A stretch of DNA of 64,000 nt, from IMG/VR virus record IMGVR_UViG_3300045988_145627, positions 22,146 through 86,145 of that record, one strand, 5' to 3'. Origin of the DNA: a virus. Lineage: Duplodnaviria; Heunggongvirae; Uroviricota; Caudoviricetes. Below the pieces are notes generated by a model that saw only the letters and a list, made by a program, of their open reading frames with translations, did not search any database and was not told the DNA's origin. This document shows positions 2,502-59,864 of this stretch, piece after piece (position 1 is the first letter of the stretch; every line of letters begins with the position of its first letter). Both the position numbers and the translations under genes were made by a program.

Positions 2502-2594
2502 TGGTGGAAAAAAAATTTTATATCGGTAAAAATAGGTAAGTATTTACTTAATGGCGGGCAAGGATAACCCGCCAAATCAAGGAGCATATTCAAC

Positions 2595-5500
2595 ATGTGG
2601 TACAGGGAAGGTACTATCACATTTACACAGGGTAGCAATACTCTGGTTGGGGCAGGGACAGCCTGGAACGTAACAGCTAATGGTGTGTTGCCGGGGATGA
2701 TCGTCATTGGCCCCGACAATAAGCTGTATGAGATCAAGCGCGTAATAAGCGATACGAATATTGTTCTCTCAGAACCTTATACCGGCGAAACTCAGTCTGA
2801 GGTTCCGTGCCGAATCATTACGACCTATGAAGGCGACTTAACACAGTTTAGCGCGCGCTTTACAGCACTAATGTCGCGTATGTCGGCTGATTCCAAGTCT
2901 ATGCGCAGTTGGTTGACTGCTCTGGATGAGGTGACAATCGAGCGTGAAGACGGTACAGAAGTAACCGTTAAGCCGCTAATGCAGATCGTCAACGAGCACA
3001 ACGAAAACGTTGAGTGGTATAAAAATAACACTGACGCGATTGATGCTGCTGGCGACAAAGCTCGTGAGGCGGCGGCCAGTGCTGCCGCAGCAGCAGAAAG
3101 CGCCAATACCGCTGGAGAAAAAGCCTCTCAAGCGTCTCAAAGTGCATCCGCTGCGGCATCCTCACAAAGTGCCGCAAGTGCGAGTGCAACTGCTGCGAAA
3201 AAATCTGAAACGAATGCCGCAGCGTCACAACAATCAGCAGCCACTTCTGCATCCACCGCGACCACGAAAGCGTCAGAAGCTGCCACCTCAGCCCGGGATG
3301 CGGCGGCCTCAAAAGAGGCAGCGAAATCATCAGAAACGAGCGCAGCCTCGAGCGCCAGTAATGCCGCTTCCTCGGCAACGGCGGCAGGAAATTCCGCGAA
3401 GGCGGCAAAAACGTCCGAGACGAACGCTAAGTCTTCTGAAACAGCAGCGGGACAGAGCGCCTCAACTGCGGCAGGTTCAAAAACAGCGGCTGCATTATCT
3501 GCCAGTGCCGCGTCAACAAGTGCCGGGCAGGCCTCAGCCAGTGCCACCGCCGCCGGAAAATCGGCAGAAAGTGCCGCATCGTCTGCTTCAACAGCCACAA
3601 CGAAGGCTGGCGAAGCCACTGAACAGGCCAGCGCAGCAGCGAGGTCTGCTTCCGCAGCGAAGACATCCGAAACGAACGCGAAAGCGTCGGAAACCCGTGC
3701 AGAATCCTCAAAAACGGCAGCCGCATCGTCCGCCAGTTCGGCAGCGTCATCGGCATCATCGGCGTCTGCTTCAAAAGATGAGGCGACCAGACAAGCGTCC
3801 GCAGCGAAGGGCAGCGCCACGACAGCATCCACGAAAGCAACAGAGGCGGCAGGCAGTGCGACGGCAGCATCTCAGAGCAAAACTGCTGCTGAATCCGCTG
3901 CGACCCGTGCGGAAGCTGCTGCTGATCGTGCTGAAGAGATTGCCGGTGCAGTTGCGATGGAAGACGCAAGCCTTACAACTAAAGGTGTTGTGAAACTTAG
4001 CAGTGCTGTCGATAGCACCAGTGAATCGCTGGCCGCAACGCCAAAAGCAGTTAAGGCCGCATATGATAATGCTGAAAAAAGACTACAGAAGGATCAGAAT
4101 GGTGCTGATATCCCCGACAAGGGCCGCTTCCTGAATAACATTAATGTTTACAGCAAAGGTGAAGTGGATAAGAAAAAGGGGATGCGAAAATACACTTTCT
4201 CTGCTCCTGCAAATGCAGTAAGCGGTAAGTGGTATCCTGTAGTCTTTCGCCGAACTGGTGGTGGCACAGATGAATTAGCCTCACGAGTGGTTATCACCAC
4301 TTATTCCTCAGCTGGCGGATACGCTATGAATAATTGTGAGTTTAATGGTTTTGTTATGCCGGGCGGTTGGTCTGATCGCGGTTCATATGCTGTTGGTTTT
4401 TTCTCAATATATTCAACCGTTGAACGATCTATACACTCGATTATCGCAAGCGTGAAAGATGATGATTTGTGTAGTGTATTTTACGTTGAGACAAGAGCAT
4501 TCCCTATCCAGATTTTTGCTGAGGAAGGATTAAATGTGATTGTTCCAACGGCTGATTATGCAGTTGGTCAAACCACTTATAAGTGGGGGGCAACTGATCC
4601 TTTATCAGAAAGTACGAATGCACAGATAATTTTGGACTTTAAAAATGGACGAGGTTATTACTGTTCACATCCATTTATTTCAAGTCTTTCAGGAAATGCT
4701 GCTACAGCAACGAAATTACAGACGGCAAGATCTATCGGTGGAGTTGGTTTCGACGGTTCTGCCAATATTAATCTTCCAGGTGTAAACACTACGGGTAATC
4801 AGAACACCACTGGTAATGCCGCAACTGCTACAAAACTACAGACGGCAAGAACTATCGGCGGCGTGAGCTTTGATGGTACTGCAAATATTAATTTGCCAGG
4901 TGTTAATACGACTGGTAATCAGAATACAACAGGTAATGCGGCTACTGCTACGAAGTTGCAGACTGCGCGTACTATTAATGGGGTGTCGTTTGACGGTTCG
5001 GCAAATATTTCCTTGTCACCAGCAAATATAGGTTGCCCAGCATCTCCTACTGGTTGGTTAACTACAGGAAGTAATGGCGGAGCAATAACAACAGCCCAGT
5101 TAGTGACGTTATTGCAAAATAATGGAGCCTTTAACACAAAGGCATGGATTGCTCGATGTGCGTGGGCCTATGCCAATAGCGCAACCATACCAAATAGTGA
5201 AACTGGTTGTGGCGTTATTCCATTGGCAGGAGCTGTTATAGAAGTATTTAATAACGGTAGTAGTTCAAATAATTATACGATCCGCATAACAACGGCCACA
5301 ACGACAAGTGTTTCCGGTGCTCTCACTAATGCGGAGTTTATCTATGTATTTAATGGCACAGATTATTCTCCAGGATGGCGAAGAGTATATAACACGAAAA
5401 ACAAACCAACAGCCTCTGATGTCGGTGCATTACCTCTTACCGGTGGTACATTATCTGGAGGTTTGACATCTTCTGGCGAGATCATTTCAAAATATGCAAA

Positions 5501-6682: not shown

Positions 6683-6822
6683 GCAATCATAGGGATATAT
6701 TAGTGAGTTACTAGATACGAATTTGAACAGCCGTTAAACGGCATATGCATAGATAGGTAAGTATATACCTATAATTGAAAGGAGAAGTGTGATATAAATC
6801 CGCCATCCCGATTTGACTTTTC

Positions 6823-9566: not shown

Positions 9567-9571
9567 CAATT

Positions 9572-9596
9572 AGGCGACTTCGGTCGCCTTTTTTGT
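9572..9596 (+). terminator. Rho-independent terminator
   Basis: aggcgacttcggtcgcct hairpin followed by TTTTTT. Confidence 0.75.
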
Positions 9597-9742
9597 TAAC
9601 AGCCATTGATTCTCGCCTAAAAATTCTAAGGCAGCACCTACCATTTAACCTTTACACCGCAGCCGTAGGCATTTAGGCTATATCACATATAAGAAAACAA
9701 GTTGTTTCAGACAATAATAATAGACGCAAAGGGAACTCTCCA

Positions 9743-11989: not shown

Positions 11990-12160
11990 TTTAATTACCT
12001 GTTTCTGTATATAAATAATAAGTAACTTATTAAATATATATACGGAAGCAGGTCTTTTAAAAGACACCCACCAGAACAACTCCCTTCCGTTTCCACTTCC
12101 AAAAACTGCCACCAGTCGCTATCATCCGCTCATTGTGATAAGTAAGTAACTACCTACTAG

Positions 12161-14375: not shown

Positions 14376-15557
14376 ATGAGCCTTTATGTTATATCAACAT
14401 TTAGGTTGGTCACAATATTGCCTGTTAAAAGTGGAATTATCGTGAGCGAGCTGAAAGAGATAATTACCGAATTAGATTTTGAACAATGGTTGGACACTGA
14501 AGGTATCGTTTATCGACGTGGAGGCGTGAGTTCTCGCGGTCGTGAAGTGAATATCAAAGAGTGTCCGGTATGCGGCAGCTCCAACTGGAAGGTATATTTC
14601 AATCTGACCAGTGGCGTCGGCAAATGCTTTGCTGGTGATCATCCCGAAGAGATTCAGTTCAATAAGCTGGTCTTCCTCAAGCACTACAGCGGTAAATCAC
14701 GACGACAGTTCGAGGAATATGTGCAGAACGCTCTTCTTTCCCAGGGGTGGGCACCAAAGAAAGAAGAGATAGTGCTTACAAGCACAGTCGAGTTAGAGGG
14801 ACCACTTGCACTCCCTCGTCATTACGAACTTCCTATAGATGGCCGTCTTCCAGACTATCTGGTTGAACGAAACATATCGCCTGAAATGGCAAAGTATTTT
14901 GACCTACGATACTGCGTCGAAGGCAAGCACGCTTATGTAGATCCGTATACAGATCAGGTAAAAGGACAGATATTCGATATGCGAGTACTGATACCGGTTT
15001 ACGATCTGGATGGGGTAATGAAGACATTTCAGGGACGAGACATTACCGGTACAGCAGACCGCCGCTACCTCTTTCCTATGCAGCTTCCAGCTTCAGGTAA
15101 GTTTCTCTACAACGGCCATAATGCAGTTGGCAAACAGACTGTAGTTGTCTGTGAGGGGGCGTTCGATGTTATGGGAGTTAAACGAGCTATTTTTGATGAA
15201 GAAACATTACGTGATTACGTGGAACCGATAGGAACGTTCGGGATGCATCTATCTGGTAACACCACTCAGGATGCAGAAGATCAGTTAGGCGCGTTCCTGA
15301 CGCTCAAGGCGCGTGGGTTACGTAATGTGATCATGATGTGGGATAGTGAAAAGCAAGCTATACGCAACACGATGGCCGCAGCCAGGCGATTGACCAGTAT
15401 TGGTCTTAATGTCAAAGTTGCGTGTTTGGGCGAGGAAGGACTCGACCCCGGCGATGCGACACCGGGGCAGATTATCAAAGCCTACTATTGCGCAAAACCT
15501 TACTCACGACAGCTTGAACTTTTAAGCAAGGTAAAAGGTATAGCAGCATTAGTTTGA
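14376..15557 (+). CDS. DNA primase (zinc-binding N-terminus plus TOPRIM domain)
   Basis: CPVCGSSNW..GKCF zinc-ribbon-like motif, VVVCEGAFDVMG TOPRIM glutamate motif; start set at the ATG preceded by the conserved AGAAAAACACATG context (ORF-track frame begins at 14304). Confidence 0.65.
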   Translation: MSLYVISTFRLVTILPVKSGIIVSELKEIITELDFEQWLDTEGIVYRRGGVSSRGREVNIKECPVCGSSNWKVYFNLTSGVGKCFAGDHPEEIQFNKLVFLKHYSGKSRRQFEEYVQNALLSQGWAPKKEEIVLTSTVELEGPLALPRHYELPIDGRLPDYLVERNISPEMAKYFDLRYCVEGKHAYVDPYTDQVKGQIFDMRVLIPVYDLDGVMKTFQGRDITGTADRRYLFPMQLPASGKFLYNGHNAVGKQTVVVCEGAFDVMGVKRAIFDEETLRDYVEPIGTFGMHLSGNTTQDAEDQLGAFLTLKARGLRNVIMMWDSEKQAIRNTMAAARRLTSIGLNVKVACLGEEGLDPGDATPGQIIKAYYCAKPYSRQLELLSKVKGIAALV

Positions 15558-16586
15558 ACCAGTATTAGTCACGTAAACATTGACCGAAAATGATTTAACT
15601 TCTGTGTTGAAGTTGTCAGTCATTACCGCGAGGTAGGCATTCTTGGTATCTCTGAATTGCTTCAGGATGATTTGAACGTTATCGGTGCAAACAAACGAGG
15701 TAGCCAGATTGCCTCCTTTCTCTGAAAAATCCTTTAGGAAAGTGCAGTCAATTTTGCCATCATTAGCGGTGAAGGTGGCATCATCACCCTGCCAGGTAAA
15801 TGTTGCGTTAACGCCTTTATCAATGGATTTAGCAATAAGTCGTTGAGTGGAGGATTTTGCTTTAGATCTTGCAGCTGATGGTTGGTATTTACCGCTTTCT
15901 TTTAGTTCTGCAATGTAATCACAGCCATTTTTATCTTCTTTATCGCAAGCTGCCTGATAAAGCTCAGCTGCTTTTTTATAATCTTTTTTAACCCCTTCAC
16001 CATACTCATACATAATGCCAAGATTCGCCAATGCAGATGCACTGCCTAGTTCGATTCCTTTTTTATAATACTCTATTGCCTTTTTGTAGCTTTTTGGCAC
16101 GCCTGCGCCAACATAATATAACTGTCCTAAATATGACGCAGATTCAGGGTCGCCAGCCTCTACTGCAAGTTTGTGATATTTCAGGGAAAGTTTTTGGTCT
16201 TTCTTACCCGCAAGTCCTTTATGATAAATAACACCCAGATTGTGATAAGAGTTGCCTCCAGCTGCATCACCAGCTTTCTTAAAGAGTTCCTCTGCCTTTT
16301 TGAAATTTTTATCAACCCCATACCCAAGGGCATACATTATACCTAGAGCATTAAACGCTTCTTTGTTCCCCTTAGAAGTCGCCAGTTCAAGCCATTTTCT
16401 GGCTTCATCGTAGTTTTTTTCGACACCATGAATACCTTTCATATAGTCGATACCTAAAGCACTCTGTGACTCAACGTCGCCTGCTTTTGCCGCATCGATC
16501 AGCTTTTGTATTTCATAGGCATGTGCACTCCCCGAAACAAGTAATAGCGACAACATAAAGAAAGATATTGGTTTGAAATGTTTCAT
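15549..16586 (-). CDS. Secreted Sel1-like repeat protein with non-repeat C-terminal domain
   Basis: N-terminal signal peptide MKHFKPISFFMLSLLLVSGSAHA; about eight 36-aa Sel1-type repeats; opposite strand to neighbours. Confidence 0.65.
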   Translation of the reverse strand: MKHFKPISFFMLSLLLVSGSAHAYEIQKLIDAAKAGDVESQSALGIDYMKGIHGVEKNYDEARKWLELATSKGNKEAFNALGIMYALGYGVDKNFKKAEELFKKAGDAAGGNSYHNLGVIYHKGLAGKKDQKLSLKYHKLAVEAGDPESASYLGQLYYVGAGVPKSYKKAIEYYKKGIELGSASALANLGIMYEYGEGVKKDYKKAAELYQAACDKEDKNGCDYIAELKESGKYQPSAARSKAKSSTQRLIAKSIDKGVNATFTWQGDDATFTANDGKIDCTFLKDFSEKGGNLATSFVCTDNVQIILKQFRDTKNAYLAVMTDNFNTEVKSFSVNVYVTNTGSN

Positions 16587-16767
16587 TTTTGGATTTTCAC
16601 AAGATGGTTAGGTGGTTGTGGCTACTCGGTGTAAGGCTTTGTAATCACCGATTGGTAAGGTTACTTCAATTTAGCTTAACTGTCAGCATACCCAATCGCC
16701 GAAAAGATAAGTAGATGATTACTTATTAGTGTGTAAGAATACTGCCATCTGTTAGCTAGGAGTTGGT

Positions 16768-17550: not shown

Positions 17551-17617
17551 GCTCTCTGTGTGTCGTTTTTTACGCAAATAATGATAGGTAAGCACAAGAT
17601 TATTTCTGGCGGTAATT

Positions 17618-20055: not shown

Positions 20056-20833
20056 AAACACAAAGATAAGTATTTACTTACTTATCTTTTATGTATAAGA
20101 TGACTTTGTTTTCGTTGAGACGCGACTGTTTGAACTTAAATACAAGTGCAAACGAAGAAGTCTATCTGGCAGTAGCCTAATAAGCCAAACACCAGCGAGG
20201 TCAGTTTCCAGCCTCGTTACCGAAATGGGACACACTGAGCGAGTGTGATTGCAGAACGCAGGAGGGAACATTCATGTTCCCTCCGATGAAGTAACAGAAT
20301 GGGCGGTTGGTATATTTTCAACTCCATATGACTCCCGGATTCTTAGCCACTGACCGCCCATCCTGTTACGTCATTTTGTTCAATTATGTCGTTTATACTG
20401 GGTTAAAAAGCGGCGACGTAGCCCGGCTGGTATGGTTAGCCAGCACACAACGTTGAGGCCATTACATTTTTATTAATTCTAAGGTTCTATTCACAGAGAT
20501 ACCGGCGAGCGTTGATATGTAACATGTTGGGCAAACATTCAATCGGAGTAGTGGCCTCAACGTTGTGAAGACAGGATTGTTGTGTAGGTTTAACCACTGT
20601 TGCCATTGGTGCCTGTTTTCACAACAAATGATTCCATACATCACATTGTATAAATTACAAAGTAGGTGCTGTCCTCAGAAACATCATCTACTTAAAGATT
20701 TTGCCTTCTACTATTGAGCGAAGTCGAAAGCGTCTGGCACTAACGAAAAGTGCAAGTAGCGGTGCGTTTCCTGGCAGAAACTAAACCGTCGCGATTGGCA
20801 CTGTTGAGTAATAAATACTGGCAGTGCCGAATT

Positions 20834-21403: not shown

Positions 21404-22738
21404 TCATGCCAAATTATCCAGATTTCTTTTCTTTTGTTCAATTATATTTCTCGCGCCAGAAAAAATTTTACTCAAAATAATTGATTTGCTTGCTCTATTA
21501 TTAAGATGTAACAACGCGCTATAAAATACATAGTTATCTATTTTACTATTTAAAGTATTCCCAAGCTTCCCGTCATATATGCTATTAATAGTATTAAAAT
21601 ATACATGTTCAGGACCTATATTACAAATACCCCTATCAACTCGCTTTAAATAATGTTTAACTAAAGAAATAGCATCTTCCTTATCATTAATAACATAAAG
21701 TCCTGAGCGTTTACCCAGTTTGCTGTTCGAGAGCAATTTACAACCTACAAGCTCACTTAACGTATCTTCAAAATTTTTCAACTCTTTGTCGGCGTTTTCC
21801 AGATAATGCTCAATCTCTTTCTCCATATTACTTATTAGAGAATTAAATTCTGCTCGTAACAAATCACCACCAGGTGATTTATAACTCCATAAAATTGAAT
21901 TGGTAATACGTACTACGTCAGATACTTCTGGTTTCTCTGAATAGTTTTTGTATCTAGTGCAAATAATGCTGTGCTTTATATATTCTCTAACTAATGATCG
22001 ATAATCCCTTTCGAAAAGGGTTTTGACATCTAGTCTTCCATTGCTTGTTGTTATTAGTGTGGTATTTAAAACTGGGTCGCCTTCAAAAAAATTATATTTA
22101 TTTAGTAATCGTTTTAGCTTGTGTGAATTATGTGATGTTTCGCCATAATAATTTAGCCCAAAAATAGCAATTATTAGCATAACATCAGGAGTGATGAAAT
22201 GTCGTAATTGCTCGGCATAAACTTTTTTCTCTTCGATTTTCGAAGATGGAGAGTAAAAACCTTTGTCTATATATTCTAATATTGAAACAATATTACTAAC
22301 ATAACGTATAAAAACTTGATTCATTACAACGGAACCATAAACCTGATGCAAATAATCTACTCTCAAGTTGTTTTTTATTTTTTCCCCTGTGCTAGATGAT
22401 AACTCTTCTTTTACCTGCCCAAGTAGCTTTTCGTGGTGCTCCAGCAATGTTTTAAACCATTGTTCAAATGATGATTTTCTTGCCTCAGTTAATGAATCTG
22501 ATGTTATCTGGACAGCTTTCATAGCTGCTTTCGCACTTTTCTTTGCTTCATAAGCGTTCCATGCTGTAGCACAAAAAGCTGCCGCCGTGATGCAACTGGT
22601 AAAAATAGAAATCCTATCTGCAACATTCAAGCTCCAGAACCAATCAGACGATGAAATCAAAACCACAGATATTACGGGAACAATGAAAATCAAAACAGGC
22701 ATGTATGTACTCGCTCTAATAGTTATTAGTCGAGGCAA
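21404..22738 (-). CDS. Hypothetical membrane-anchored protein, low-GC (444 aa)
   Basis: Two N-terminal hydrophobic helices followed by ~380 aa Lys/Asn/Tyr-rich soluble region; opposite strand to neighbours. Confidence 0.5.
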   Translation of the reverse strand: MPRLITIRASTYMPVLIFIVPVISVVLISSSDWFWSLNVADRISIFTSCITAAAFCATAWNAYEAKKSAKAAMKAVQITSDSLTEARKSSFEQWFKTLLEHHEKLLGQVKEELSSSTGEKIKNNLRVDYLHQVYGSVVMNQVFIRYVSNIVSILEYIDKGFYSPSSKIEEKKVYAEQLRHFITPDVMLIIAIFGLNYYGETSHNSHKLKRLLNKYNFFEGDPVLNTTLITTSNGRLDVKTLFERDYRSLVREYIKHSIICTRYKNYSEKPEVSDVVRITNSILWSYKSPGGDLLRAEFNSLISNMEKEIEHYLENADKELKNFEDTLSELVGCKLLSNSKLGKRSGLYVINDKEDAISLVKHYLKRVDRGICNIGPEHVYFNTINSIYDGKLGNTLNSKIDNYVFYSALLHLNNRASKSIILSKIFSGARNIIEQKKRNLDNLA

Positions 22739-22880
22739 ATATTATATAAATCTCGTTATGATTTACAGACATGTATACGTATTGCTAATTATCACCAACA
22801 AATGATAGGTGTGTACATATTTATCATTTGTTGTAAAATTAATGTATACGCTATGAATACACTAATAATATGAGGTAATC

Positions 22881-23126
22881 ATGACTATCGTTATCTACGG
22901 ACGAGATAACTGTTCATACTGCAAACGTGCGGTCGAGCTGGCGAAGCAACTAAAGGGACATGGCTACGGTGATTATGAGTACATCGACATCACCACTGCT
23001 GGTATCGACAAGGAAAAACTTAGTGAAATTGTTGGTAAACCGGTAGAGACTATCCCCCAGGTACTGATCGATGGCCAACCGATTGGCGGATACACAGAAC
23101 TGGCTGCATACGTCAGCACCCTCTGA
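22881..23126 (+). CDS. nrdH: Glutaredoxin-like protein (NrdH-type redoxin)
   Basis: 81 aa with CSYC redox motif near the N-terminus. Confidence 0.7.
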   Translation: MTIVIYGRDNCSYCKRAVELAKQLKGHGYGDYEYIDITTAGIDKEKLSEIVGKPVETIPQVLIDGQPIGGYTELAAYVSTL

Positions 23127-23131
23127 TTTTA

Positions 23132-23156
23132 ACGGCTCACAGGAGCCGTTTTTTAT
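23132..23156 (+). terminator. Rho-independent terminator
   Basis: aacggctcacaggagccgtt hairpin followed by TTTTT. Confidence 0.75.
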
Positions 23157-23206
23157 TCCCACCAAACTCACACCTGTTTCCCTTAAAATTCAAAAAACAA
23201 CATCTA

Positions 23207-23239
23207 AATGATTCCATACCTACTATGTATGGAATCATT
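23207..23239. other. Candidate recombinase core site: 13-bp inverted repeat aatgattccatac / gtatggaatcatt around a 7-bp spacer
   Basis: Perfect palindrome ~100 bp upstream of the tyrosine recombinase gene; the same 14-17-mer recurs as half-sites at 19614-19630 and 20626-20642. Confidence 0.45.
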
Positions 23240-23337
23240 ACTGAAAATGAGTTACTTTTACTCTTGATCCTATAAGAATCTATGCCTAATATACTGTTTA
23301 CTTATACAGTGCATCGGCGTAACTCGGTGATTGTCAT

Positions 23338-24441
23338 ATGAAAAATAGCTTTGACAGAGCACGCGCTGCGGAGAACACCTCAAAAGAGGCGATTGAGTAT
23401 CTCGAAAGAGCATCTCAAATGCAGGCCGTTATGATCTCCCAGGTCAGCAATGACATGAGATTCTCGGACGCATTCATGTTATTCACTCGCTTATCTCTGC
23501 TGATAACAAGACGTCGGCCAGAGATCGCTGTTCATTGTATTTTGATACATGTTTTGCCGCACATTGCCGATGTAAAAGTAAGTGATATTAATAGGTTCAT
23601 GGTGAACCAACTGGTCAACCCACTAATACTGGATGGCAAAATTGTTATGGGTCGCCGCGTTTTCTCTCTGATGAAGCAGTTCCTCAGCTGGTGCGCCTTC
23701 CAGGGGATGATCGACGTGTCACCGTTAAACGATATGTCACTTAACAAAGTTGCCGGTGGCGCAAAGCCCACACCTCGCGAGCGGAAGCTAACCGACGCAG
23801 AGGTATGGGTGTTCTGGAATATATGGGACTACTTCAATGTGTGTGCTGGTACAAAATGGGCGGCCAGGCTATGTCTTGTATCCGCAAGACGACCTGACGA
23901 AGTACTGCGGGCTAAAAAAAGTGAGTTCAACCTCCAGCGTGGGGTTTGGAATCAAGGCAAGAGAAACAAATCAGCCCGTGAGCATTCTCTGCCTTTAAGC
24001 ACATTAATGCGCACATGCATTGAAGAGTTATTCGAATATGGTAAAGGCAGCCAGTGGCTTGTGCCTTCGAATAAAAAAATCGGGAAAGATCTTCCGATGT
24101 CTAAAGTGGCAATAGCCCAGGCATTACGCCGTATCCTGGAACGACCAGAACTGATGGAGCTTGAGCCATTTACACCACGAGATTTGCGTCGTACTGCGCG
24201 TAGTTACTTCCCAGCATTAGGCATAAGCCAGGAGGTATCACGTAAAATCATGAACCACAGTCTTGAGGGGATAGATCGGGTCTACGACCGGCACGATTAT
24301 ATGGACGAGATGCGAGACGCCTTAGAAAGTTTCTCGACGTACATCGCATCAATCGTAGAGCAACCGGATTTAGACGAAATTGACCACAAATTCAAGGGAG
24401 ATCGTCTATCGACAGAGCTTATTCGTGTAAATTTTTCATAG
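23338..24441 (+). CDS. int: Tyrosine recombinase / integrase
   Basis: C-terminal catalytic boxes LVSARRPDEV, FTPRDLRRTARS, NHSLEGIDRVYDRHDYMDE (R..H-x-x-R..Y pattern). Confidence 0.75.
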   Translation: MKNSFDRARAAENTSKEAIEYLERASQMQAVMISQVSNDMRFSDAFMLFTRLSLLITRRRPEIAVHCILIHVLPHIADVKVSDINRFMVNQLVNPLILDGKIVMGRRVFSLMKQFLSWCAFQGMIDVSPLNDMSLNKVAGGAKPTPRERKLTDAEVWVFWNIWDYFNVCAGTKWAARLCLVSARRPDEVLRAKKSEFNLQRGVWNQGKRNKSAREHSLPLSTLMRTCIEELFEYGKGSQWLVPSNKKIGKDLPMSKVAIAQALRRILERPELMELEPFTPRDLRRTARSYFPALGISQEVSRKIMNHSLEGIDRVYDRHDYMDEMRDALESFSTYIASIVEQPDLDEIDHKFKGDRLSTELIRVNFS

Positions 24442-24822
24442 AGACTTTATGGCCTCAACAACCTTTTGTGATGCGCCTTTCTCTTTACCGAATCGCTCGT
24501 TATATGCAGCAAGAACCTGTTTTTCGTCCTCGTTAAGAGGAGCAGTGCCTTCTTTGTATAAAAATGCTGCGAGTTCGGGTTGGCGTTCTTCCAGCACCAT
24601 CATCATAAGACGACTTGGCTCAATACCCAGTGCCAGCGCCAGCGGACGAACCTTATCGATAGGCAAAGGAATTTTGCCGCTTTTAATTAAAGAAAGGTTG
24701 TTGGCGTTTTTATACCCAATTGTTTTGGCTATCTGGGCCTGGCTCATAGGTGAGGATTCAATCAACCCTGCGATAAAAGCAGCGTAGCGACTTTCTATAA
24801 ATTCAATCTTGTTGTCAGACAT
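24436..24822 (-). CDS. Helix-turn-helix transcriptional regulator (XRE/Cro-CI type)
   Basis: HTH segment SQAQIAKTIGYKNANNLSLIKSGK; 128 aa; convergent with int and divergent from a small + strand ORF. Confidence 0.65.
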   Translation of the reverse strand: MSDNKIEFIESRYAAFIAGLIESSPMSQAQIAKTIGYKNANNLSLIKSGKIPLPIDKVRPLALALGIEPSRLMMMVLEERQPELAAFLYKEGTAPLNEDEKQVLAAYNERFGKEKGASQKVVEAIKSL

Positions 24823-25073
24823 TGTTACAACCTTTGCGCGTTCAATTCTCTCTGGTAAGTGCTTACCGATATTACATCAAAGGTTAGGGTTGTAAAGCTA
24901 TTATCATTTTTTTCGGCAGGCACTTTAAAGACCGGACAAAGACCAATGCATGGTGAAAAACTAGCCCCAAATAGGTAAGAAAATTAACTTGCATCTAATA
25001 TGGATGTATTCAGTATTGATATAAATTTTAGTAGTATTCCTTACAATAGTATAAGTAAGAATGGATTGATTGA

Positions 25074-25286
25074 ATGAACACCACTATTTCCAGCCTAATA
25101 GCTCTTGAGATCGGACACGTACAAAAATTAGCTGATGAGTGTGTAGCTGACATCCTCACCGAGCTACCGAATGAGCAGATTGAGGTTGGTGTGAATGACA
25201 CAACTGGCTTTATATTCGAACTTAACAACAAACGCTTCACGCTTATCAATACCGGCTCCGGGTCTTTAGCCGTCAGAACCTGTTAA
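25074..25286 (+). CDS. Hypothetical small protein (70 aa), divergent from the HTH regulator
   Basis: ORF only; upstream intergenic region carries a GGTAAGTGCTTACC palindrome. Confidence 0.3.
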   Translation: MNTTISSLIALEIGHVQKLADECVADILTELPNEQIEVGVNDTTGFIFELNNKRFTLINTGSGSLAVRTC

Positions 25287-25384
25287 TCCCTCTTCTACCT
25301 GCGCGAATGGCTTAGTTCCCTGTTCGCGCAGTGCTACATTAAACACACTAGTAAATAATTTGTTTTCATAACAAAGGATTAGCC

Positions 25385-27493
25385 ATGTCCAAAAAACGTT
25401 CCATCAAAGAGGTTCAGGACTTCCGTGACAGTGTAAAACGAGTAGTCGCTCTCCTTTCAGGTAAAAACATCCCTGTTGCAGAACGAGGGGACGACGCTTA
25501 TGTACGCTATAACGATGATGGAGAGCCAATTCTCGTAAACATCCCATCAATCCCAGATAACGCAACACCGGCATTGATGAATGCAGTACGCGGATTTCTA
25601 GATCATGAAGTTGCTCACATTTTGTTTACCGATATTCATGTGTCCAACAAAATGAGAGAAAAAGGACACGTCCCTTCCTGGTCACTATGGAATGCCTTAG
25701 AAGACGTGTTCATCGAGCGAAAAATGGGGCAGGTCTTTAACGGAACAAGACGTAATCTGATGGCAACTCAGCGCCTGATAATCGAAAAAGTCTTTAAACC
25801 AAAGGCTTCAGAGGCTATTACTTATTGTGGCAAAGATCAGCGCGCGCTTTTTCTAAACTTCTTTCTCTGTCCGGTTGTAAGAGCCTGGGATGGCCAAGCA
25901 CCGTTCGTAGATTTCATGGATGAATACTGGCCTGTCATTGAGAAACCAATTTCATTATTAAAAGAACATGGTATCGATGTGGCCGTGCGTAACATGTCTT
26001 GCACGGAGGATTGTTTAAAGGTGGCTGCGACCATAGCTAAGATCCTCAAAGACACAGAAAGTGAAAGCAAAGGTAAGGAGTCAGCTCCGGGAAAAACTCC
26101 CGATCCTTCAGACGCTGACCAAGCGGATTCCTCTGGAGAAAGTAATGAAGACAATGAAGATCACAAGACACATGAGATGCTAGATAATCACATATCTATA
26201 GATGATGAGTCACACGGTAAGTACATACATGATGATAACGATAGTGATGATTCAGATAATTCTGAATCATCAGAAACAATATTCGATGATACAAAAAATG
26301 ATAAAGAGGTATTAGATTCTGATACTTCCAATAGCGCGACGACAGAAGCAACTACCTCGGATCACGAAAAAAGAAAAACGGCAGAAGACGGCTCTTCAGA
26401 CATTCCCACTCCGTCCAAAATGAGTCTGGAAGAGGCTTTAGAGGAGCTTGATAGCATGGAAGATGAAGTCGGAGGCATGACAGAAGATGCACTATCCGAA
26501 ACGATTAAAAGCGAGTTAACAGAAAGCTCGAAAAGCGAATACAGGCCATACAATCGCTCATACGACTTCATCGGTTCGATTGATCAGGCAGAAGCCCATA
26601 TCAAACGGCTTATTAAAACATTCTCCGATATTGATTTAGGTGGATATCCAATCAGCCGTTATCGCATCGTTCCTGAAGGCAACCAACTCTTCGACAAATA
26701 TATTGAAAAGCATCTTTCGTCAGGTGTTTCGTCGACGCTGGCAAAAGACCTGGAGCGTGCAATTGCAAGCAGAAACAGAGTTCAGTTTATACCGGGCCAG
26801 CGTCGGGGGCGCATTCATGGTTCTAGTATCTACAGATTAGCAATGAATGATGATCGCGTGTTTCGTAAAAAAGAAGAATCTAAGGCCGTTAACGCCTGTG
26901 TTCAACAAGTGATTGATTTATCAGGTTCAATGAGCGGCGAAACGATTAAACTGGCTCTTGCAAGTGCATATACCATCGCCGATGCGCTTGATCGAATAAA
27001 TGTTCCCAACATTATCACCGGCTTCACAACATTTGGTAGTCATATGGCAGCAGGAGAGCTTAAGGCAATCAAGTATGAGTTCTCTCGCTTTGAATCTTTA
27101 ATGCTACCTATCATCAAAAATTGGAATGAAAAGGCAAATTCTCGCGAAGTTCGCTCACGTATGGGGTGCGTAGGCTACACATTCCCACTTCTTAATAACG
27201 TGGATGGTGAAAGCATAGCCAGCCTTGCATCGTTATTTTCTGGTCGCATGGAGGACAAGAAGATCATGCTTGTTCTAAGCGATGGCGCGCCGTGGGCTGT
27301 TGGGAGAGGTTTTGACGCTCATTTGCGTTCGGTTGCGAAGCAAATTGAAACGCAGACTGACATTGATTTGATGGCAATTGGCATCATGACTGACGCACCG
27401 GAGAGATTTTACGCAAACCATGCCCTAGTAACGAGCGTTGATAGTCTTGGTTCATCTGTAGTTACTGAACTATCTCGTATCATTTTGAAGTGA
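25385..27493 (+). CDS. von Willebrand factor A (vWA) domain protein with N-terminal HExxH motif and acidic low-complexity linker (CobT-like)
   Basis: HEVAH at aa ~74; C-terminal MIDAS-like DLSGSMSG plus LVLSDGAPW; Asp/Ser/Glu-rich central region. Confidence 0.6.
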   Translation: MSKKRSIKEVQDFRDSVKRVVALLSGKNIPVAERGDDAYVRYNDDGEPILVNIPSIPDNATPALMNAVRGFLDHEVAHILFTDIHVSNKMREKGHVPSWSLWNALEDVFIERKMGQVFNGTRRNLMATQRLIIEKVFKPKASEAITYCGKDQRALFLNFFLCPVVRAWDGQAPFVDFMDEYWPVIEKPISLLKEHGIDVAVRNMSCTEDCLKVAATIAKILKDTESESKGKESAPGKTPDPSDADQADSSGESNEDNEDHKTHEMLDNHISIDDESHGKYIHDDNDSDDSDNSESSETIFDDTKNDKEVLDSDTSNSATTEATTSDHEKRKTAEDGSSDIPTPSKMSLEEALEELDSMEDEVGGMTEDALSETIKSELTESSKSEYRPYNRSYDFIGSIDQAEAHIKRLIKTFSDIDLGGYPISRYRIVPEGNQLFDKYIEKHLSSGVSSTLAKDLERAIASRNRVQFIPGQRRGRIHGSSIYRLAMNDDRVFRKKEESKAVNACVQQVIDLSGSMSGETIKLALASAYTIADALDRINVPNIITGFTTFGSHMAAGELKAIKYEFSRFESLMLPIIKNWNEKANSREVRSRMGCVGYTFPLLNNVDGESIASLASLFSGRMEDKKIMLVLSDGAPWAVGRGFDAHLRSVAKQIETQTDIDLMAIGIMTDAPERFYANHALVTSVDSLGSSVVTELSRIILK

Positions 27494-27588
27494 TTAGAAT
27501 AGCCTTAATGATAAGTAATCACTTACGATATTTGATGGTATATTTATATAAGAAGTTGAAAGCTCATTAGAAAACAAAGGAAAAACGC

Positions 27589-32696: not shown

Positions 32697-33695
32697 CTAT
32701 CTTGAATTAGGGGCTTTCTCTATAATTATTCGATTCAGAATATGATTACGATCACTGTATGGTTCGAAATGTTCTGCAATCGAGTATGAACCGACACTAC
32801 GTGCGACCACATCTTCAAAATATTCAAGGATTTTAGGTAGATACTTTTCATAATTTTGTGAACAAATCGACACTACAGGATCGAATTCTACTAATCGACG
32901 CTTTACACGTATATGGTTATTTATTTTTTCATATTCATTCATCATAGAGTTCAAGTCTGGTACTACCCGCTCAGGGCTACACAGGTAGGTGCTGCGGTCA
33001 TACTCGTCTCCGAATTTATCAAGAGGAACACCTATCTCTAGCAACGTCTTGTTTACTCGCTTTGCAAGCTCAATTATCTCTTTATCTTCTTCTGTAAGCC
33101 ACATGTCGACCCACTTTTGTTTGTCTGCCCATTCAGACAGATAATCATCCTTATTGAAAGTTACAGGAGCACATCCAGAGTCACTTCTTAATGCTTTATC
33201 CTTTATTTTAGAAATTGTTTTTTTATCTAAATGCTTCCAATAAATAGCAGGTTCGTCTAATTCATTATCATCGTGTAGGCATATCAAAACAATTACCACA
33301 GGAAAATCACAACTTCCCCAATAGGTTATATTTTTATAAGGTATTTGTACGCTTAACCTTCTCTTCATTTTGCGTGAGGTGGTTTTTATCTGAACGCCGA
33401 TAAAAAAACCTGTCGAAAGATTATTTTCATATATTTCAACCTGAGCATCCAATCCCATATCAATATCTAGCAATCGACAAGGCCATCTGAAATAACGAGA
33501 AATCCAATAGGCAAACAAGTACTCTCCAGCGTGTCCATCCGCACTGGTTTTCGGATATGTCATACCTTCAGTTTTATTCTTTTCTGCCGCTGGCTTTACA
33601 GACTTAGCTTTTGGGGGGAGGGCTGTTTTTTTAGTCGGCACTGACTTTGTTGCTTTGACTTGTTTGTTAGCCTTATCCATTGGTTTTATTCTCAA
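32697..33695 (-). CDS. Hypothetical protein with restriction-endonuclease-like (PD-(D/E)xK-type) core candidate, low-GC (332 aa)
   Basis: Lys/Pro-rich N-terminal tail then GHAGEYLFAYWISRYF..DIDMGLDAQVEIYE..FFIGVQIKTT (D..E..QxK spacing); only reverse-strand gene in the replication block; TTG start at 33695, alternative ATG 15 nt downstream. Confidence 0.5.
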   Translation of the reverse strand: MRIKPMDKANKQVKATKSVPTKKTALPPKAKSVKPAAEKNKTEGMTYPKTSADGHAGEYLFAYWISRYFRWPCRLLDIDMGLDAQVEIYENNLSTGFFIGVQIKTTSRKMKRRLSVQIPYKNITYWGSCDFPVVIVLICLHDDNELDEPAIYWKHLDKKTISKIKDKALRSDSGCAPVTFNKDDYLSEWADKQKWVDMWLTEEDKEIIELAKRVNKTLLEIGVPLDKFGDEYDRSTYLCSPERVVPDLNSMMNEYEKINNHIRVKRRLVEFDPVVSICSQNYEKYLPKILEYFEDVVARSVGSYSIAEHFEPYSDRNHILNRIIIEKAPNSR

Positions 33696-34255: not shown

Positions 34256-34372
34256 TTTTTGATAGATAATAAGTAAGTACTGATCTATCATTTAACAGCT
34301 CGAAAGAGCCACGAATGAACGAAAGCCCAACGCGCATAGCGCCATCGGCCAAATCACAACAAGGAGAAACAC

Positions 34373-37752: not shown

Positions 37753-37777
37753 AAGGCGTCCACAGGACGCCTTTTTT
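37753..37777 (+). terminator. Rho-independent terminator (aggcgtccacaggacgcct + T6)
   Basis: GC-rich hairpin plus TTTTTT; almost identical to the terminator at 38892. Confidence 0.8.
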
Positions 37778-37840
37778 ATCTCTTGAAAATATATAAGCAC
37801 TTACTTATTATTTTCGCATAACAACCACATAGGAAAACAC

Positions 37841-39723: not shown

Positions 39724-39765
39724 GTTTACAGTAAATTTATATAAATAAGTTAGTATCTACCTATC

Positions 39766-42183: not shown

Positions 42184-42284
42184 ACCGCTGACAGCATACT
42201 TGATTTGCCGCTGACAGAATACCAAAAACAGTTGGCAGCATACGGTGAACCGCTGACAGACTATCAATTACCGCTGACAGCATA
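42184..42284. repeat. Second iteron cluster (4-5 copies) upstream of repA; likely origin / autoregulatory operator
   Basis: accgctgacagcatac at ~42184 and ~42269, variants gccgctgacagaatac, accgctgacagactat and a partial copy in between. Confidence 0.8.
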
Positions 42285-42484
42285 CATGAACATGGCTTCA
42301 GACCAGTCGTGGCGCGGCTTACAGCGATCGGGGATCTTATTTGATCTATACAAGGATCTATCTATGGATCTCTTTATTAGGATCTATCCTGTGGATATGT
42401 GAATAATTAAAACAGGCATTTACTACCTTCGGCGCACCTGGTGGGTTATCGTTGCCTCGGCTAACAATCACAGAAAAATGACAT

Positions 42485-43129: not shown

Positions 43130-43383
43130 CCCTCCAGATCGTATATTGGCGTAGATAGAATCTACGCCTCCTCAAAATAGCTCTCATAGCGTTCTACAGT
43201 GATCCTGTCTTATTTTTAGTCATACAGACAAGCAAAGTTGCGCCACAATAAATAGGTATATACTTACTTATAAATTTTGTATATTAAGACGCTCGTTTCA
43301 TTCCTAACATACCGTTATGCATAGTTGTTTACCTTCTCATTGCTCTTAAAATTTGTATCAAAATAACCACAACGGAAAAACAC

Positions 43384-47942: not shown

Positions 47943-47975
47943 TTTCATTGATAGGTAAGTGCTTATCTATTAACA

Positions 47976-48005
47976 TGGGCCACTATATTTAGTGGCCCTC
48001 TTTAT
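47976..48005 (+). terminator. Rho-independent terminator (gggccactatatttagtggccc + T-rich)
   Basis: Hairpin followed by tctttatttg. Confidence 0.6.
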
Positions 48006-52620: not shown

Positions 52621-52697
52621 ATCTGTCTGGTCTTGTTCTCTCAATGAATGTAAACTCACACGATGAATAAGTAATTACTTATCTTTGTGAGGTTTTT

Positions 52698-56381: not shown

Positions 56382-56385
56382 AACA

Positions 56386-57428: not shown

Positions 57429-57475
57429 ACGCGCCAGAGAGCTTCTTGTTCGCATTTCTGGCGCGTTTTATTTGA
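57429..57475 (+). terminator. Rho-independent terminator (acgcgccaga..tctggcgcgt + TTTTATTT), preceded by a second hairpin at ~57392-57421
   Basis: 10-bp inverted repeat plus T-run. Confidence 0.7.
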
Positions 57476-57533
57476 TTGCTATACATAAAACCAAATGCAA
57501 AAATAGGTAATCACTTACCTATCGAGAAAGAAG

Positions 57534-58127
57534 ATGATTGCAGCCGAAAAAATCAAACAGCGAAAGCGCGACAACTCTCTTCGTGACCTCTGGAGAACAC
57601 CTGATTGGCTGTTTTCTGCCATTCAACGTTATCTTGGAGTGACATTTGATGTTGACGTTGCCTGCAACAAGGACAATGCAAAGCTGCCTAATTTCATAGG
57701 CGTTGAGCGCGATGCTTTGAAATCTGAATGGGGGCAGCCAGGTACAATTGCCTTCCTCAATCCACCCTACTCCAAAATCTCCCCCTGGATTGATGCGGCT
57801 ATACGTGAGCAGGCTCGCGGAGTTACAACAGTGATGCTAATTCCTCAATCCCTCGATACAAAGTGGTATGAGCGTGCAACAGAGTGTGCGAATGAGACGA
57901 TTATTCTGTCTGGTGGCCGCGTAGCGTTTGTCGAGCCTGACGTCAATTTGGGTCAGGTAGAAGTAAACATCAACCCCGGTGGCAGTATGCTCGTTGTTTT
58001 TCGAGGATTCTGTCAGGACGCTGGGCACTCTATAAGCAAGATCCCTTTGGACGTCATGAAAAGTCTGGGAGGGTATGATCCTGCGAATGTGATCAGGAAA
58101 AAAAGACCATCAAAGAAGGCTGCTTAG
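57534..58127 (+). CDS. dam: Orphan DNA N6-adenine methyltransferase (phage Dam-type)
   Basis: N-terminal WRTPDWLF and catalytic NPPYS motif in a ~200-aa protein; no adjacent restriction gene. Confidence 0.65.
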   Translation: MIAAEKIKQRKRDNSLRDLWRTPDWLFSAIQRYLGVTFDVDVACNKDNAKLPNFIGVERDALKSEWGQPGTIAFLNPPYSKISPWIDAAIREQARGVTTVMLIPQSLDTKWYERATECANETIILSGGRVAFVEPDVNLGQVEVNINPGGSMLVVFRGFCQDAGHSISKIPLDVMKSLGGYDPANVIRKKRPSKKAA

Positions 58128-58312
58128 TTTGTTCTGGCGTCTGTAATTAGCCTGCTTCTGTATATATAAATAACTACATATTAATTATTAATATACGGAA
58201 GCAGGCTGTTTTGTATCAGAGACTCCAGACCTGAACATCACTACAGAATCCACTAGAACCCCTTCCCAGACGCTTTAAAATCGATTTTATGAACCACTTT
58301 AAGGAAACCAAC

Positions 58313-58543
58313 ATGTCATACCCGACTAATGTCGTTGCGCTCGTAGAGAGCGATTTTCTGGCCCAGGCTCGTGAAATGATGAAAGATCGTGAGCAGGCTT
58401 TCAACTTGTACGAGTGGGCAATTAAGTGCTTGCATCTTGGCGAGCATCGCGAACTTGTTGAACAGCTTTTAGGTGAGTTGATCAATGAGGTGTTTGCCTT
58501 GAATGTTCAACTACATGGTCGAGAAAATAATCAATCACAATGA
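58313..58543 (+). CDS. Hypothetical small protein (~76 aa)
   Basis: ATG with AAGGA SD (ORF-track frame starts at 58289). Confidence 0.35.
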   Translation: MSYPTNVVALVESDFLAQAREMMKDREQAFNLYEWAIKCLHLGEHRELVEQLLGELINEVFALNVQLHGRENNQSQ

Positions 58544-59125
58544 TAGATAAGTACAAACTATTCATAAAGTGAATTGTAAGTGCTAAGATATGATAGTTTC
58601 CAGTCGTAGACTGGAGGCTCGACCTGATGGGTGGGGGTAAGCGTCACTGGCGTCAGGTTTAAAAAAGCTCACTACCAGCGTAGAACCGGTGCCGTATAGG
58701 TGTCGGGGAAGGGGGAACCAAAGTGAGCAGAGACAAGGGTCACTTTATGATTGTCGAGTCTGGGGTGTTTCGAGAGGTTGAATCCAGTACTCCCCTTCAT
58801 AAAGTGTGGGAAGATCTCGGTTCTGGGGTGCTGTCATCCATAACTTCCCAAGTCTAAGCTGGCAGTAGACTTAGACCATAGCTTTTCAGGTTATGAAACG
58901 ACCAGGTTGGTGAGGAATTTTATACTCACCTCCCTGGGAGAGTATTACCTGAAAAGACAACCTCTCACTTCGTTCGAGGTGAACTTCACTCACTTCGTTC
59001 GTTCAGTTCAGGTTTATAAAAACCTGTTCTGGGAAGTAATTTGTTTATTTTAATAATTATTAACACGCACGCGTGTGCGCACGCGCGAGGAAAAAATCGG
59101 CGCGGCGCTTGATTCAGGAGTTTAT

Positions 59126-59719
59126 ATGACGACGAAGACACCAGCCCGATCGCAAGCAAAAACTCGCAAAAAAGCCAAAAACAAAAATTCTCCCCGCACC
59201 AATCCCACAACGCCTGTCGTAGAGTTCAATCCCCAGCTCAAAACCGTGAAAATCTTTAGTGATGGCTCTTGCCTTAAAAATCCGGGTGGCCCGGGCGGTT
59301 ACGGTATCGTTCTCCAGTATCGTGGTGAGGAACGCGAGTTCTCAGATGGTTTTCATAGCACCACCAATAACCGCATGGAGATGATGGGCGCACTTATCGG
59401 GCTGGAGCGTTTGAAATATCCATGCAACGTTATTTTGTACTCTGATAGCCAGTATCTGAAAAACGGCATGACACAGTGGATGAAATGGTGGAAACGTAAT
59501 GGATGGATGACTTCTGATAAAAAACCGGTAAAGAATGTTGATCTGTGGAAACGTCTGGATGAGGCCGCAAGTCGACATAATGTTCGCTGGAAGTGGGTTA
59601 AAGGTCACGCCGGGCATCGTGAAAATGAAATATGTGATCGACTCGCGAAGATCGCAGCTTTTTCAGCAGCAGATATGCCTCACAAGAAAGATATTGGTTT
59701 TGTTTATAACAAGTGGTAA
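59126..59719 (+). CDS. rnhA: Ribonuclease HI
   Basis: [74 protein letters not shown] closely match E. coli RNase HI as I recall it; start placed at the ATG with AGGAG SD (ORF-track frame begins at GTG 59075). Confidence 0.85.
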
Positions 59720-59864
59720 GTAAGTGTTTACCTATCATTTTAAATCATGTATCTTATCAGCGTCAGGATGACAATGTGTCGGTAAGACACAGTTCCAGGA
59801 TGGAACGAGAAAGGCGGCTGGCAATCGCCAGCCGCAACTCTTTCTGACATTGGATGGAGTCCAC

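Follow-up and report, generated by a model that had tools for sequence, protein, structure and literature searches.

Dispersed symmetric palindromes as candidate operators of a proposed XRE-type repressor in an SSU5-type phage-plasmid

We analyzed a 64-kb stretch (45% G+C; hereafter, the window) of IMG/VR virus record IMGVR_UViG_3300045988_145627, which derives from an SSU5/pHCM2-type phage-plasmid of Escherichia coli; elements of the SSU5/pHCM2/pMT1 type are among the commonest phage-plasmids of Enterobacterales and have clinical relevance. Dispersed over this window is a family of 20-bp palindromes, which are probably operators for a symmetric, element-encoded repressor, most probably the XRE-type helix-turn-helix (HTH) protein encoded at 24436-24822. 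Binding of the motif by a protein, repression through this binding, and the identity of the HTH protein as the binder are all predictions from sequence. An initial annotation had suggested that one dimeric regulator uses such palindromes to act on many operons, a view that is supported by the symmetry of the sites, the absence of a wobble bias in their mismatches, their phylogenetic footprint, and their overlap with promoters in several registers.

The palindrome family and its promoter context

All 15 palindromes listed in the initial annotation were found in the window, and, as claimed there, they form a single family, re-aligning as one 20-mer with the consensus ATAAGTAAGTACTTACCTAT (i.e., ATAAGTAAGT/ACTTACCTAT, with the slash here and below marking the centre of symmetry, or ATARGTAAGT/ACTTAYCTAT with degenerate positions); the element measures ~26 bp if its flanks are counted. 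Some positions were corrected by this alignment. The copy near the HTH gene, previously placed at 24844-24857, is real, with ggtaagtgcttacc found at 24854-24867 within the 20-mer 24851-24870; the element at 34261-34289 is real, with a narrower family 20-mer (34269-34288); and the reported perfect 16-mer at 52667-52682 is likewise real, with the 20-mer 52663-52682 representing its best alignment to the family. Register shifts are possible because the half-site has an internal 4-bp period (TAGG TAAG TA).

The motif is ~12 to 170 times more frequent than expected by chance, which is excluded as its origin. Allowing up to two mismatches, TAAGTANNTACTTA presented 25 matches versus 2.0 expected, a number reached by none of 100 shuffles, and the half-site ATARGTAAG presented 12 matches versus 0.73 expected. 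A position weight matrix (PWM) identified 22 positions with at least 14 bits versus 0.13 expected from Markov-1 simulations, a comparison that is partly circular as the PWM was trained on the same sites. The motif is also not equally common inside genes; all 15 strong sites are located outside open reading frames (ORFs) of at least 80 aa, a fraction representing 14.7% of the window (p ~3e-13), if site 59716, which overlaps the last 4 nt of its upstream ORF, is counted among them. The proposed placement at operon starts was borne out as well, with 13 of the 15 strong sites located 3-120 nt upstream of a plus-strand ORF or tRNA cluster; the plus strand holds nearly all lytic genes of the window. 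A PWM scan identified no site in the regions upstream of the plasmid-maintenance genes parA (upstream region 9567-9742) and repA (upstream region 42284-42484).

The window shows ~96-97% identity to Escherichia phages CMS-2020a, Cyrano, and PhiR41_1, and ~80% identity to Salmonella phage SSU5 and Klebsiella relatives; the gene order of the window is that of Cyrano. The complete Cyrano genome contains ~24 sites, including, in the virion module, sites at the TerL/portal junction, at the 3′ end of the portal gene before the scaffold and capsid genes, after the capsid gene, and before tail genes, as well as one site that precedes two ParB-like genes; no site was found in the Cyrano accessory region (85-105 kb). 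SSU5 also contains ~24 sites, at orthologous positions, and the orthologous sites of Cyrano and SSU5 show 88.7% identity in the 20-mers versus ~54% in ungapped flanks. Palindromes are present at matching places in plasmids of Klebsiella whose HTH proteins share 56% and 48% identity with that of the window; eight identity classes of viral contigs also contain the motif, as does Yersinia pestis pMT1. In these alignments, the palindromes stand out as a clear phylogenetic footprint. The virulence plasmid pMT1 of Y. pestis has retained the HTH gene with its putative promoter-operator as well as the dispersed palindromes; in pMT (L094, NC_017266), the F1 capsule operon (caf1R, caf1M, caf1A, caf1; 22245-27373) is located directly beside the integrase-HTH module.

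Among 41 distinct sites, the non-Watson-Crick pairs within the palindrome comprise 39 G·T and 37 A·C; because these mismatches show no G·U bias, whereas an RNA stem would favour one class, the palindrome is best read as a DNA site rather than an RNA hairpin. The preferences of the flanks are mirrored (a/t, a/t, a/g before and c/t, a/t, t after the palindrome, with weak T-rich and A-rich tracts beyond), and the symmetry reaches ~13 bp on either side of the centre. Judged by this pattern, the element is a symmetric DNA site of ~26 bp, as for a dimer or tetramer, with binding being predicted.

By sequence, the sites overlap promoter elements at 37789, 34269, 47951, 16707, 20066, 27511, 43252, and 57503, and at the HTH promoter. 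The promoter around site 37789 (37783-37811) was the best match in a 20-kb scan with an independent promoter tool, and this spacer-filling layout is also present in Cyrano, SSU5, and pMT1; the same layout, with TTGAAA-17-TATGAT, is found inside the portal gene of Cyrano (3527) and SSU5. The independent tool also predicted promoters around sites 34269 and 47951. At 16707, 20066, 27511, and 43252, alignments of diverged lineages revealed a variable stretch of 5-8 nt followed by a conserved extended -10-like block, an arrangement in which the palindrome appears to take the place of the -35 element; in the orthologous tRNA promoter of Klebsiella, the palindrome is located 4-6 bp further from the -10. 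The conserved TTGCTA-17-AAAAAT at 57503 is predicted to start transcription within the palindrome, and, because sites such as 12138 abut a strong Shine-Dalgarno sequence, transcripts there would be expected to start at or before the palindrome. This varied geometry seems to fit a repressor better than an activator, since steric block tolerates a varied register, whereas an activator normally needs a fixed geometry; moreover, no activator would be needed at some of the sites, because their hexamers are good and their 17-nt spacers optimal. As a separate recurrent promoter element, GTAAGAAT was considered and rejected, as it is not enriched (4 matches versus 2.2 expected).

The XRE-type gene and its relation to the motif

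The proposal that the HTH gene encodes the binder is supported circumstantially, by the palindrome at its own promoter, its near-universality among the plasmids, its expression in a lysogen, its absence from SSU5, and a recognition-helix block that is constant where the motif is constant and differs where the motif differs. The protein matches phrog_8 ("transcriptional regulator"; 1.3e-11) and, below the Pfam cut-off, HTH_19 (E = 7.8e-4); a search of PDB yielded no relative by sequence. An AlphaFold2 model with a mean predicted local distance difference test score (pLDDT) of 77.5 (80-91 in residues 11-90) presented Foldseek matches to C.AhdI, P22 c2, 434, Stl, SinR, and DdrO, with weak E-values of 4e-3 and above; as modelled, the protein has an XRE/lambda-repressor-like fold with a helical C-terminal part as in Stl, SinR, and DdrO.

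An alignment of eight lineages showed that TTTACA and TG-TAATAT in the predicted promoter of this gene are invariant, while the 16-nt spacer is variable and the palindrome starts at the edge of the -10. Read from these letters, the footprint is that of a strong promoter with a palindrome over the putative start-site region, i.e., the classical layout of negative autoregulation. At its outer positions, the palindrome copy at this promoter (24851) differs from the consensus, pointing to a lower affinity. Both the Klebsiella 56% class and Y. pestis pMT1 retain this copy, and the 48%-identity Klebsiella group presents a diverged copy, GTAAGTAATCACATATTTAC, at the equivalent place by the HTH gene. 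Isolated half-sites near the gene (24971 and 25051) were set aside, as lineages other than that of E. coli do not conserve them. Another conserved block, ...CTGATATAGAT.TATT..GTATTGATACA...GGTAGTAGTAT..., was found at 24990-25073 and in the orthologous regions (L033-L078), past the HTH promoter and ahead of the first rightward ORF (25074-25286; phrog_2627); it does not match the palindrome family and may represent a rightward early promoter or a site for another regulator.

The HTH gene, which is oriented divergently to the lytic genes, is located beside the integrase gene in 865 plasmids, and its counts by genus (Klebsiella, 348; Escherichia, 230; Enterobacter, 92; Yersinia, 63; Salmonella, 49; Citrobacter, 25) match those of the core gene for a gp32-like single-stranded DNA-binding protein (SSB; 347, 224, 92, 63, 49, and 25, respectively). 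The Cyrano copy, CYRAN_45, was transcribed 10-fold above the prophage background in an LF82 lysogen and was labelled a putative repressor (PMC9928086). Only SSU5 and one incomplete 84-kb record were phage records without the HTH gene. SSU5, a free phage isolate, lacks the whole module of integrase, HTH gene, and small ORF, yet has kept all palindromes; because the module is missing from this phage, it appears to be dispensable for lytic growth. As far as gene content can tell, this gap fits a repressor and excludes the HTH protein as an essential activator. A scan of genome contigs with the HTH alignment yielded no relatives; the relatives used here came from viral contigs.

Two distant relatives from Acinetobacter baumannii share the synteny, including an HTH gene beside the integrase gene, but carry other dispersed palindromes. 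In p107.0Kbp (L010, NZ_CP035046), the palindrome is ATCAGTCAGT/ACTGACTGAT (core GTCAGT/ACTGAC; 11 matches versus 0.9 expected), and in pA52-1 (L093, NZ_CP034093) it is ATTAGTAAGC/GCTTACTAAT (core GTAAGC/GCTTAC; 9 matches versus 0.13 expected). Because two motif variants occur in one host species, the binder must be encoded by the element and not be a host factor; the regulon of a host transcription factor was ruled out on the same grounds. The recognition-helix block GYKNxNNLSLIKSGKIPLP barely varies among enterobacterial HTH classes that otherwise share 55-70% identity, in keeping with their invariant motif; in the two Acinetobacter elements with variant motifs, the block reads GFKRPNVLSMIKSGETRLP and GINQNMVSFIVRGKSKLP. 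This covariation of motif and HTH protein is only suggestive, because the two Acinetobacter elements differ in most of their proteins. The integrases of these two elements are 99% identical, while the rest of both elements is only 30-65% identical. A gene annotated as encoding a sigma-70 family factor was observed between the MoxR-like ATPase gene and dnaE in an Acinetobacter relative (L093 12902-13567; L010 14900-15583); an element-encoded sigma factor was rejected as an explanation, as the Sigma70_r2 Pfam match falls below the cut-off and no homologue is present in the window, Cyrano, or SSU5.

Proposed switch and alternative explanations

According to the model that we propose, the plasmid (lysogenic) state would be maintained by the repressor, made from its own strong and self-limited promoter and bound to ~25 single operators per genome (15 strong ones in the window), each overlapping a promoter or heading a lytic gene cluster. 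The clusters gated in this manner would include those for the tail fibre, lysis, helicase-primase, ligase, tRNAs, cob genes, DNA polymerase and SSB, recombination, sbcCD, nrdAB, thyX, and dam, as well as the head and tail modules outside the window. RNA polymerase would be blocked by occlusion, and read-through from maintenance operons that are located on the same strand and active in the lysogen (e.g., parA) would probably also be stopped. The lower-affinity operator over the start-site region of the HTH gene would confer negative autoregulation, and loss or inactivation of the repressor would free all clusters together. SSU5-like elements have been described as mitomycin-inducible in Enterobacter (PMC9600943). 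A LexA-box-like sequence, CTGTTTACTTATACAG, is located just upstream of the integrase gene (23294-23309); LexA boxes were rejected as an induction route, as this single match is at chance level (35% of shuffles).

Several points weigh against this model. The motif core AAGT/ACTT, together with the frequent TAT+NNT at its 3′ edge, resembles P1 late promoters, and it would be unusual for one small XRE protein to directly repress ~25 promoters, including those of structural operons. Many sites have no recognizable sigma-70 promoter; none was predicted near 2532, 6753, 12138, and 16707 or at the Cyrano TerL/portal junction, and an activator-dependent design could also explain such gaps. The covariation of motif and HTH protein is unspecific, given that most proteins of the two Acinetobacter elements differ by 35-70%, and other candidate binders are encoded outside the window, namely a pair of ParB-like proteins, with a site ahead of their genes, and some small proteins.

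The main alternative is that the palindrome is an element of activator-dependent lytic promoters, like those of the P1 late genes, at which an SSU5-borne activator would recruit RNA polymerase while shutting off the HTH promoter; we consider this unlikely. P1 late promoters follow the pattern cAAGTGACTT-N4-TAnnnT, and here GTAAGT/ACTTAC is followed 3 nt later by TAT+NNN, with a T at +3 in 60% of sites; most sites lack a canonical -35 hexamer, several genes begin 11-16 nt past the palindrome, which is compatible with short-leader transcripts, and structural genes are also preceded by sites, as with late promoters. However, tblastn of P1 Lpa versus the window, Cyrano, and SSU5 identified no homologue (best E = 0.7; a weak pairwise match to CYRAN_116 was not convincing), and the half-site spacing is even, without a central base, unlike that of P1. 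The putative -10 is conserved no better than its mirror image (27/45 on each side), which gives no sign of a directional element, and the distance from the palindrome to the conserved -10 block differs among sites (0, 3, 8 to 9, 14, and 20 nt) as well as among orthologues. In addition, some sites lie in the spacers of near-consensus promoters that need no activator, and where a strong Shine-Dalgarno sequence abuts the palindrome (12138 and SSU5 57746), it would drop out of the transcripts.

Another element-encoded protein, e.g., a KorB/ParB-like regulator or a small protein, might silence or organize the DNA through the palindromes, with the HTH gene being merely one of its targets, an explanation that appears quite improbable. 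An element-encoded binder could be a protein other than the HTH protein, and the annotations of Cyrano and SSU5 include ParB-like genes, 17 nt upstream of which lies a palindrome (Cyrano 105107); RK2 KorB, a ParB-family protein with 12 dispersed palindromic operators, provides a precedent. Nevertheless, the ParB-like genes form part of the terminase-proximal lytic block, and the set of genes expressed in the lysogen does not include them (PMC9928086); the XRE HTH gene is the only regulator-type gene reported as expressed there, besides the gene for the HicB antitoxin of hicAB, which may also bind DNA, and the promoter of the HTH gene carries a site. ParB sites are also usually near-perfect and often intragenic, whereas the present sites are degenerate and strictly intergenic. 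The least probable explanation, and one to which we give very little weight, is that the palindromes work in RNA as hairpins, i.e., as processing sites, translational operators (e.g., for an FljA/Hfq-like protein), or terminators. Although the sites are located in transcribed intercistronic gaps, often touching a Shine-Dalgarno sequence or ATG, and an FljA-family protein is encoded in Cyrano and SSU5, G·U pairs are not in excess over A·C (see above), the half-sites vary independently of each other, a loopless AT-rich stem makes a poor hairpin, the palindromes are not followed by a T-run, and one copy lies on the opposite strand, in the promoter region of the HTH gene. An Rfam search of the window identified tRNA only, with no family match for the palindromes; REP/BIME-like or terminator-type RNA palindromes were rejected on the same features (no G·U bias, AT-rich, no loop, no Rfam match).

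The FljA homologue itself (Cyrano L004:10780-11301, minus strand; SSU5_121; PF03614, E = 1e-80) is a full-length relative of the Salmonella phase-1 flagellin repressor with a weakly Hfq-like C-terminus, and may modulate host flagellin. It was rejected as the binder, as its gene is located outside the window and has no site nearby; it is more likely to be a moron acting on host flagellin.

Features of the window and comparison with known systems

In gene order, the window starts with the end of tail gene J and proceeds via the tail fibre, the lysis cassette, toxin-antitoxin genes, and parA to helicase, primase, ligase, and the tRNAs, then through the integrase with the divergent HTH gene, cob-like genes, dnaE, the gp32-like SSB, exonuclease, and recombinase to repA, sbcCD, a ruvC-like gene, nrdAB, thyX, dhfr, and dam. 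The palindromes and associated features are listed in Table 1.

Table 1. Palindromes, promoters, and hairpins of the window, with the HTH gene; positions refer to the window.
Position	Strand	Feature	Context
2532-2551		Palindrome, ATAGGTAAGTATTTACTTAA	43 nt upstream of the tail-fibre gene (2595); orthologous site kept in Cyrano and SSU5
2553-2575		Hairpin	After site 2532-2551
6753-6772		Palindrome	Upstream of the holin/lysis cassette (6823); conserved TGTGATATAAA (extended -10-like) ~18 nt downstream in the window, Cyrano, and SSU5
12138-12157		Palindrome	Abuts the Shine-Dalgarno sequence and start of the gene (12161) ahead of a DnaB-like helicase gene; SSU5 and Klebsiella have it too; the parA operon, expressed in the lysogen, ends ~150 nt upstream
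16707-16726		Palindrome	Upstream of 16768; conserved TGTAAGAAT (extended -10) 5 nt downstream in 5/6 lineages, degenerate in the sixth
17584-17603		Weaker palindrome (PWM 13.9 bits)	Only left half good; upstream of 17618; kept in Cyrano and viral loci
20066-20085		Palindrome	Upstream of the tRNA cluster (tRNA-Asn 20834, tRNA-Ser 21122); conserved TATAAGAT 8 nt downstream
22805-22824		Weaker palindrome (PWM 17 bits), ATAGGTGTGTACATATTTAT	Upstream of the glutaredoxin gene (22881); stronger orthologues in other lineages
24436-24822	-	HTH gene	128-aa XRE-family protein; proposed immunity repressor
24851-24870		Palindrome, TCTGGTAAGTGCTTACCGAT	Directly downstream of the -10 of the HTH gene promoter
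24869-24896	-	Predicted sigma-70 promoter of the HTH gene	-35 TTTACA (24891-24896), 16-nt spacer, -10 TAATAT (24869-24874)
27511-27530		Palindrome	Upstream of the cobS/MoxR-like ATPase gene (27589); conserved TATATTTATATAAGA block 6-8 nt downstream
34269-34288		Palindrome	Upstream of the gp32-like SSB gene (34373); within promoter-like match 34263-34291 (TAGATA-17-TATCAT)
37753-37773		Intrinsic terminator	Just upstream of promoter 37783-37811
37789-37808		Palindrome	Fills the 17-nt spacer of near-consensus promoter 37783-37811 (TTGAAA-17-TATTAT)
39745-39764		Palindrome	ATG of a 59-aa ORF (39766) 2 nt further on; kept in SSU5, Klebsiella, and pMT1
43252-43271		Palindrome	Upstream of the sbcD-like gene (43384); conserved extended -10 6-9 nt downstream (TGTATATT in the window, TGTCATAAT in SSU5)
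47951-47970		Palindrome	Between the ruvC-like stop (47942) and nrdA (48016); within promoter-like match 47948-47976 (TTGATA-17-TAACAT)
47977-47998		Terminator hairpin	Directly after site 47951-47970
52663-52682		Palindrome	Upstream of thyX (52698); holds the perfect 16-mer 52667-52682
57503-57522		Palindrome	11 nt upstream of the dam-like methylase ATG (57534); TTGCTA-17-AAAAAT upstream, hexamers kept in SSU5, spacer diverged
59716-59735		Palindrome	Shares 4 nt with the end of ORF 59075-59719; upstream of 59850

Some palindromes are located between a stop codon and a strong hairpin (in the window, the hairpins at 47977-47998 and 2553-2575; in Cyrano, those at 5468-5487 and 15538-15560). The hairpin at nrdA is a full intrinsic terminator, retained in SSU5 through compensatory changes. 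If transcription started ~10-13 nt after the palindrome, as predicted, the start site would sit within the 5′ arm of the hairpin, and in this predicted arrangement the terminator would halt read-through from upstream and not transcripts from the local promoter. An AT-rich near-palindrome, ATAAATAATAAGTAACTTATTAAATAT (12011-12040), which contains half-site words of the family, was also observed between the end of the parA operon and site 12138; a similar element is present in Cyrano at 31175.

Three minus-strand accessory genes located between lytic operons (15549-16586, 21404-22738, and 32697-33695) are missing or different in Cyrano; the encoded proteins are, respectively, one with Sel1 repeats, one with a borderline AbiC-like abortive-infection domain, and one with DUF4365. 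After the genes at 15549-16586 and 21404-22738, the next lytic operon begins with a palindrome site. A 129-aa ORF on the minus strand (63536-63925) resembles type I restriction enzyme R subunits (PF12008, 1.6e-27) over their C-terminal part only, and represents either a fragment or a stand-alone domain. Carriage of resistance genes has been described in a survey of phage-plasmids (PMC9600943), and the group of SSU5-type phage-plasmids includes pMT1 (PMC7969092).

The searchable full-text literature, which did not extend to subscription papers, described neither the motif nor a repressor-operator pair of the SSU5 type, such that a prior description is possible; it also yielded no account of the control of lysogeny in SSU5-type phage-plasmids. 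The operator consensus, along with a named candidate repressor, provides a testable model of the lysis-lysogeny switch, makes immunity groups and cross-immunity among plasmids predictable, and offers a simple explanation for the lytic use of SSU5 in biocontrol, this phage being without the int-HTH module. It also provides handles for inducing or curing these plasmids and a map of ~25 lytic promoters for annotation. The model also suggests that all enterobacterial members share one immunity specificity, from which the Acinetobacter relatives have diverged. A broader, speculative idea, which we would hold only tentatively, is that the SSU5 supergroup and Acinetobacter AB-like phage-plasmids share an ancient design, in which one small XRE protein directly gates every lytic operon, for replication as well as for the virion, via ~25 symmetric operators and without a cascade, its specificity having been re-tuned (GTAAGT, GTCAGT, GTAAGC); alternatively, the palindrome could be dual-mode, serving both as repressor operator and as promoter element for an Lpa-like factor. 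If the shared design were true, the re-tuned specificities would define immunity groups, with homo-immunity among all members from enterobacteria, Y. pestis pMT1 and S. Typhi pHCM2-type plasmids included.

The lambdoid repressors CI, P22 C2, and 434 are alike in their HTH fold (Foldseek root-mean-square deviation of 1.4 to 2 Å to P22 c2, 434, and C.AhdI), palindromic operators, a gene divergent from the lytic genes, and an operator at the repressor's own promoter. However, lambdoid phages have two or three clustered operator regions and a cascade, whereas the system described here would have ~25 single operators over ~85 kb; in addition, induction must differ from the lambdoid route, because the HTH protein has no S24 peptidase domain. 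The late promoters of P1, which need Lpa with host SspA, present a 9-bp inverted repeat (AAGTnACTT) centred near -22 and a TAnnnT -10; shared features are the inverted AAGT/ACTT half-sites just upstream of TAnnnT and the often missing -35. Here, by contrast, the arms are longer, there is no central base, the register of the -10 is not fixed, and sites are also found at early replication genes and over the HTH promoter. The last T of the -10 is present in 60% of sites, equal to the mirror-image A, and tblastn identified no activator of the Lpa family (phrog_1704), a result obtained without a profile search of all proteins.

The initial annotation had drawn an analogy to P1 C1, which holds for the regulatory design and not for the operator or the type of protein. 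In both cases, one element-encoded repressor is matched with many operators over a ~100-kb plasmid prophage, and, according to the P1 annotation, C1 operators overlap lytic promoters at varying positions relative to the -35 and -10. The C1 operator, with the consensus ATTGCTCTAATAAATTT, is an asymmetric 17-mer (annotated as 17-bp and monovalent), as opposed to the symmetric 20-mers found here, and C1 is much larger than the 128-aa, small XRE HTH protein. P1 also runs its late structural operons indirectly, via Lpa, whereas here the same site precedes head, tail, and lysis genes as well. Dispersed palindromic operators are likewise known for KorB of RK2, and KorA and KorB of RK2/RP4 coordinate many operons through small sets of palindromic operators dispersed on the plasmid; they differ in belonging to other protein families, in their unrelated operators, and in that their regulons control conjugative plasmid functions and not a lytic programme. 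KorA is referred to as a global repressor of RP4 in PMC2665229. Overall, the design in the window resembles P1 C1 immunity and the KorA/KorB regulons of RK2 while belonging to neither family.

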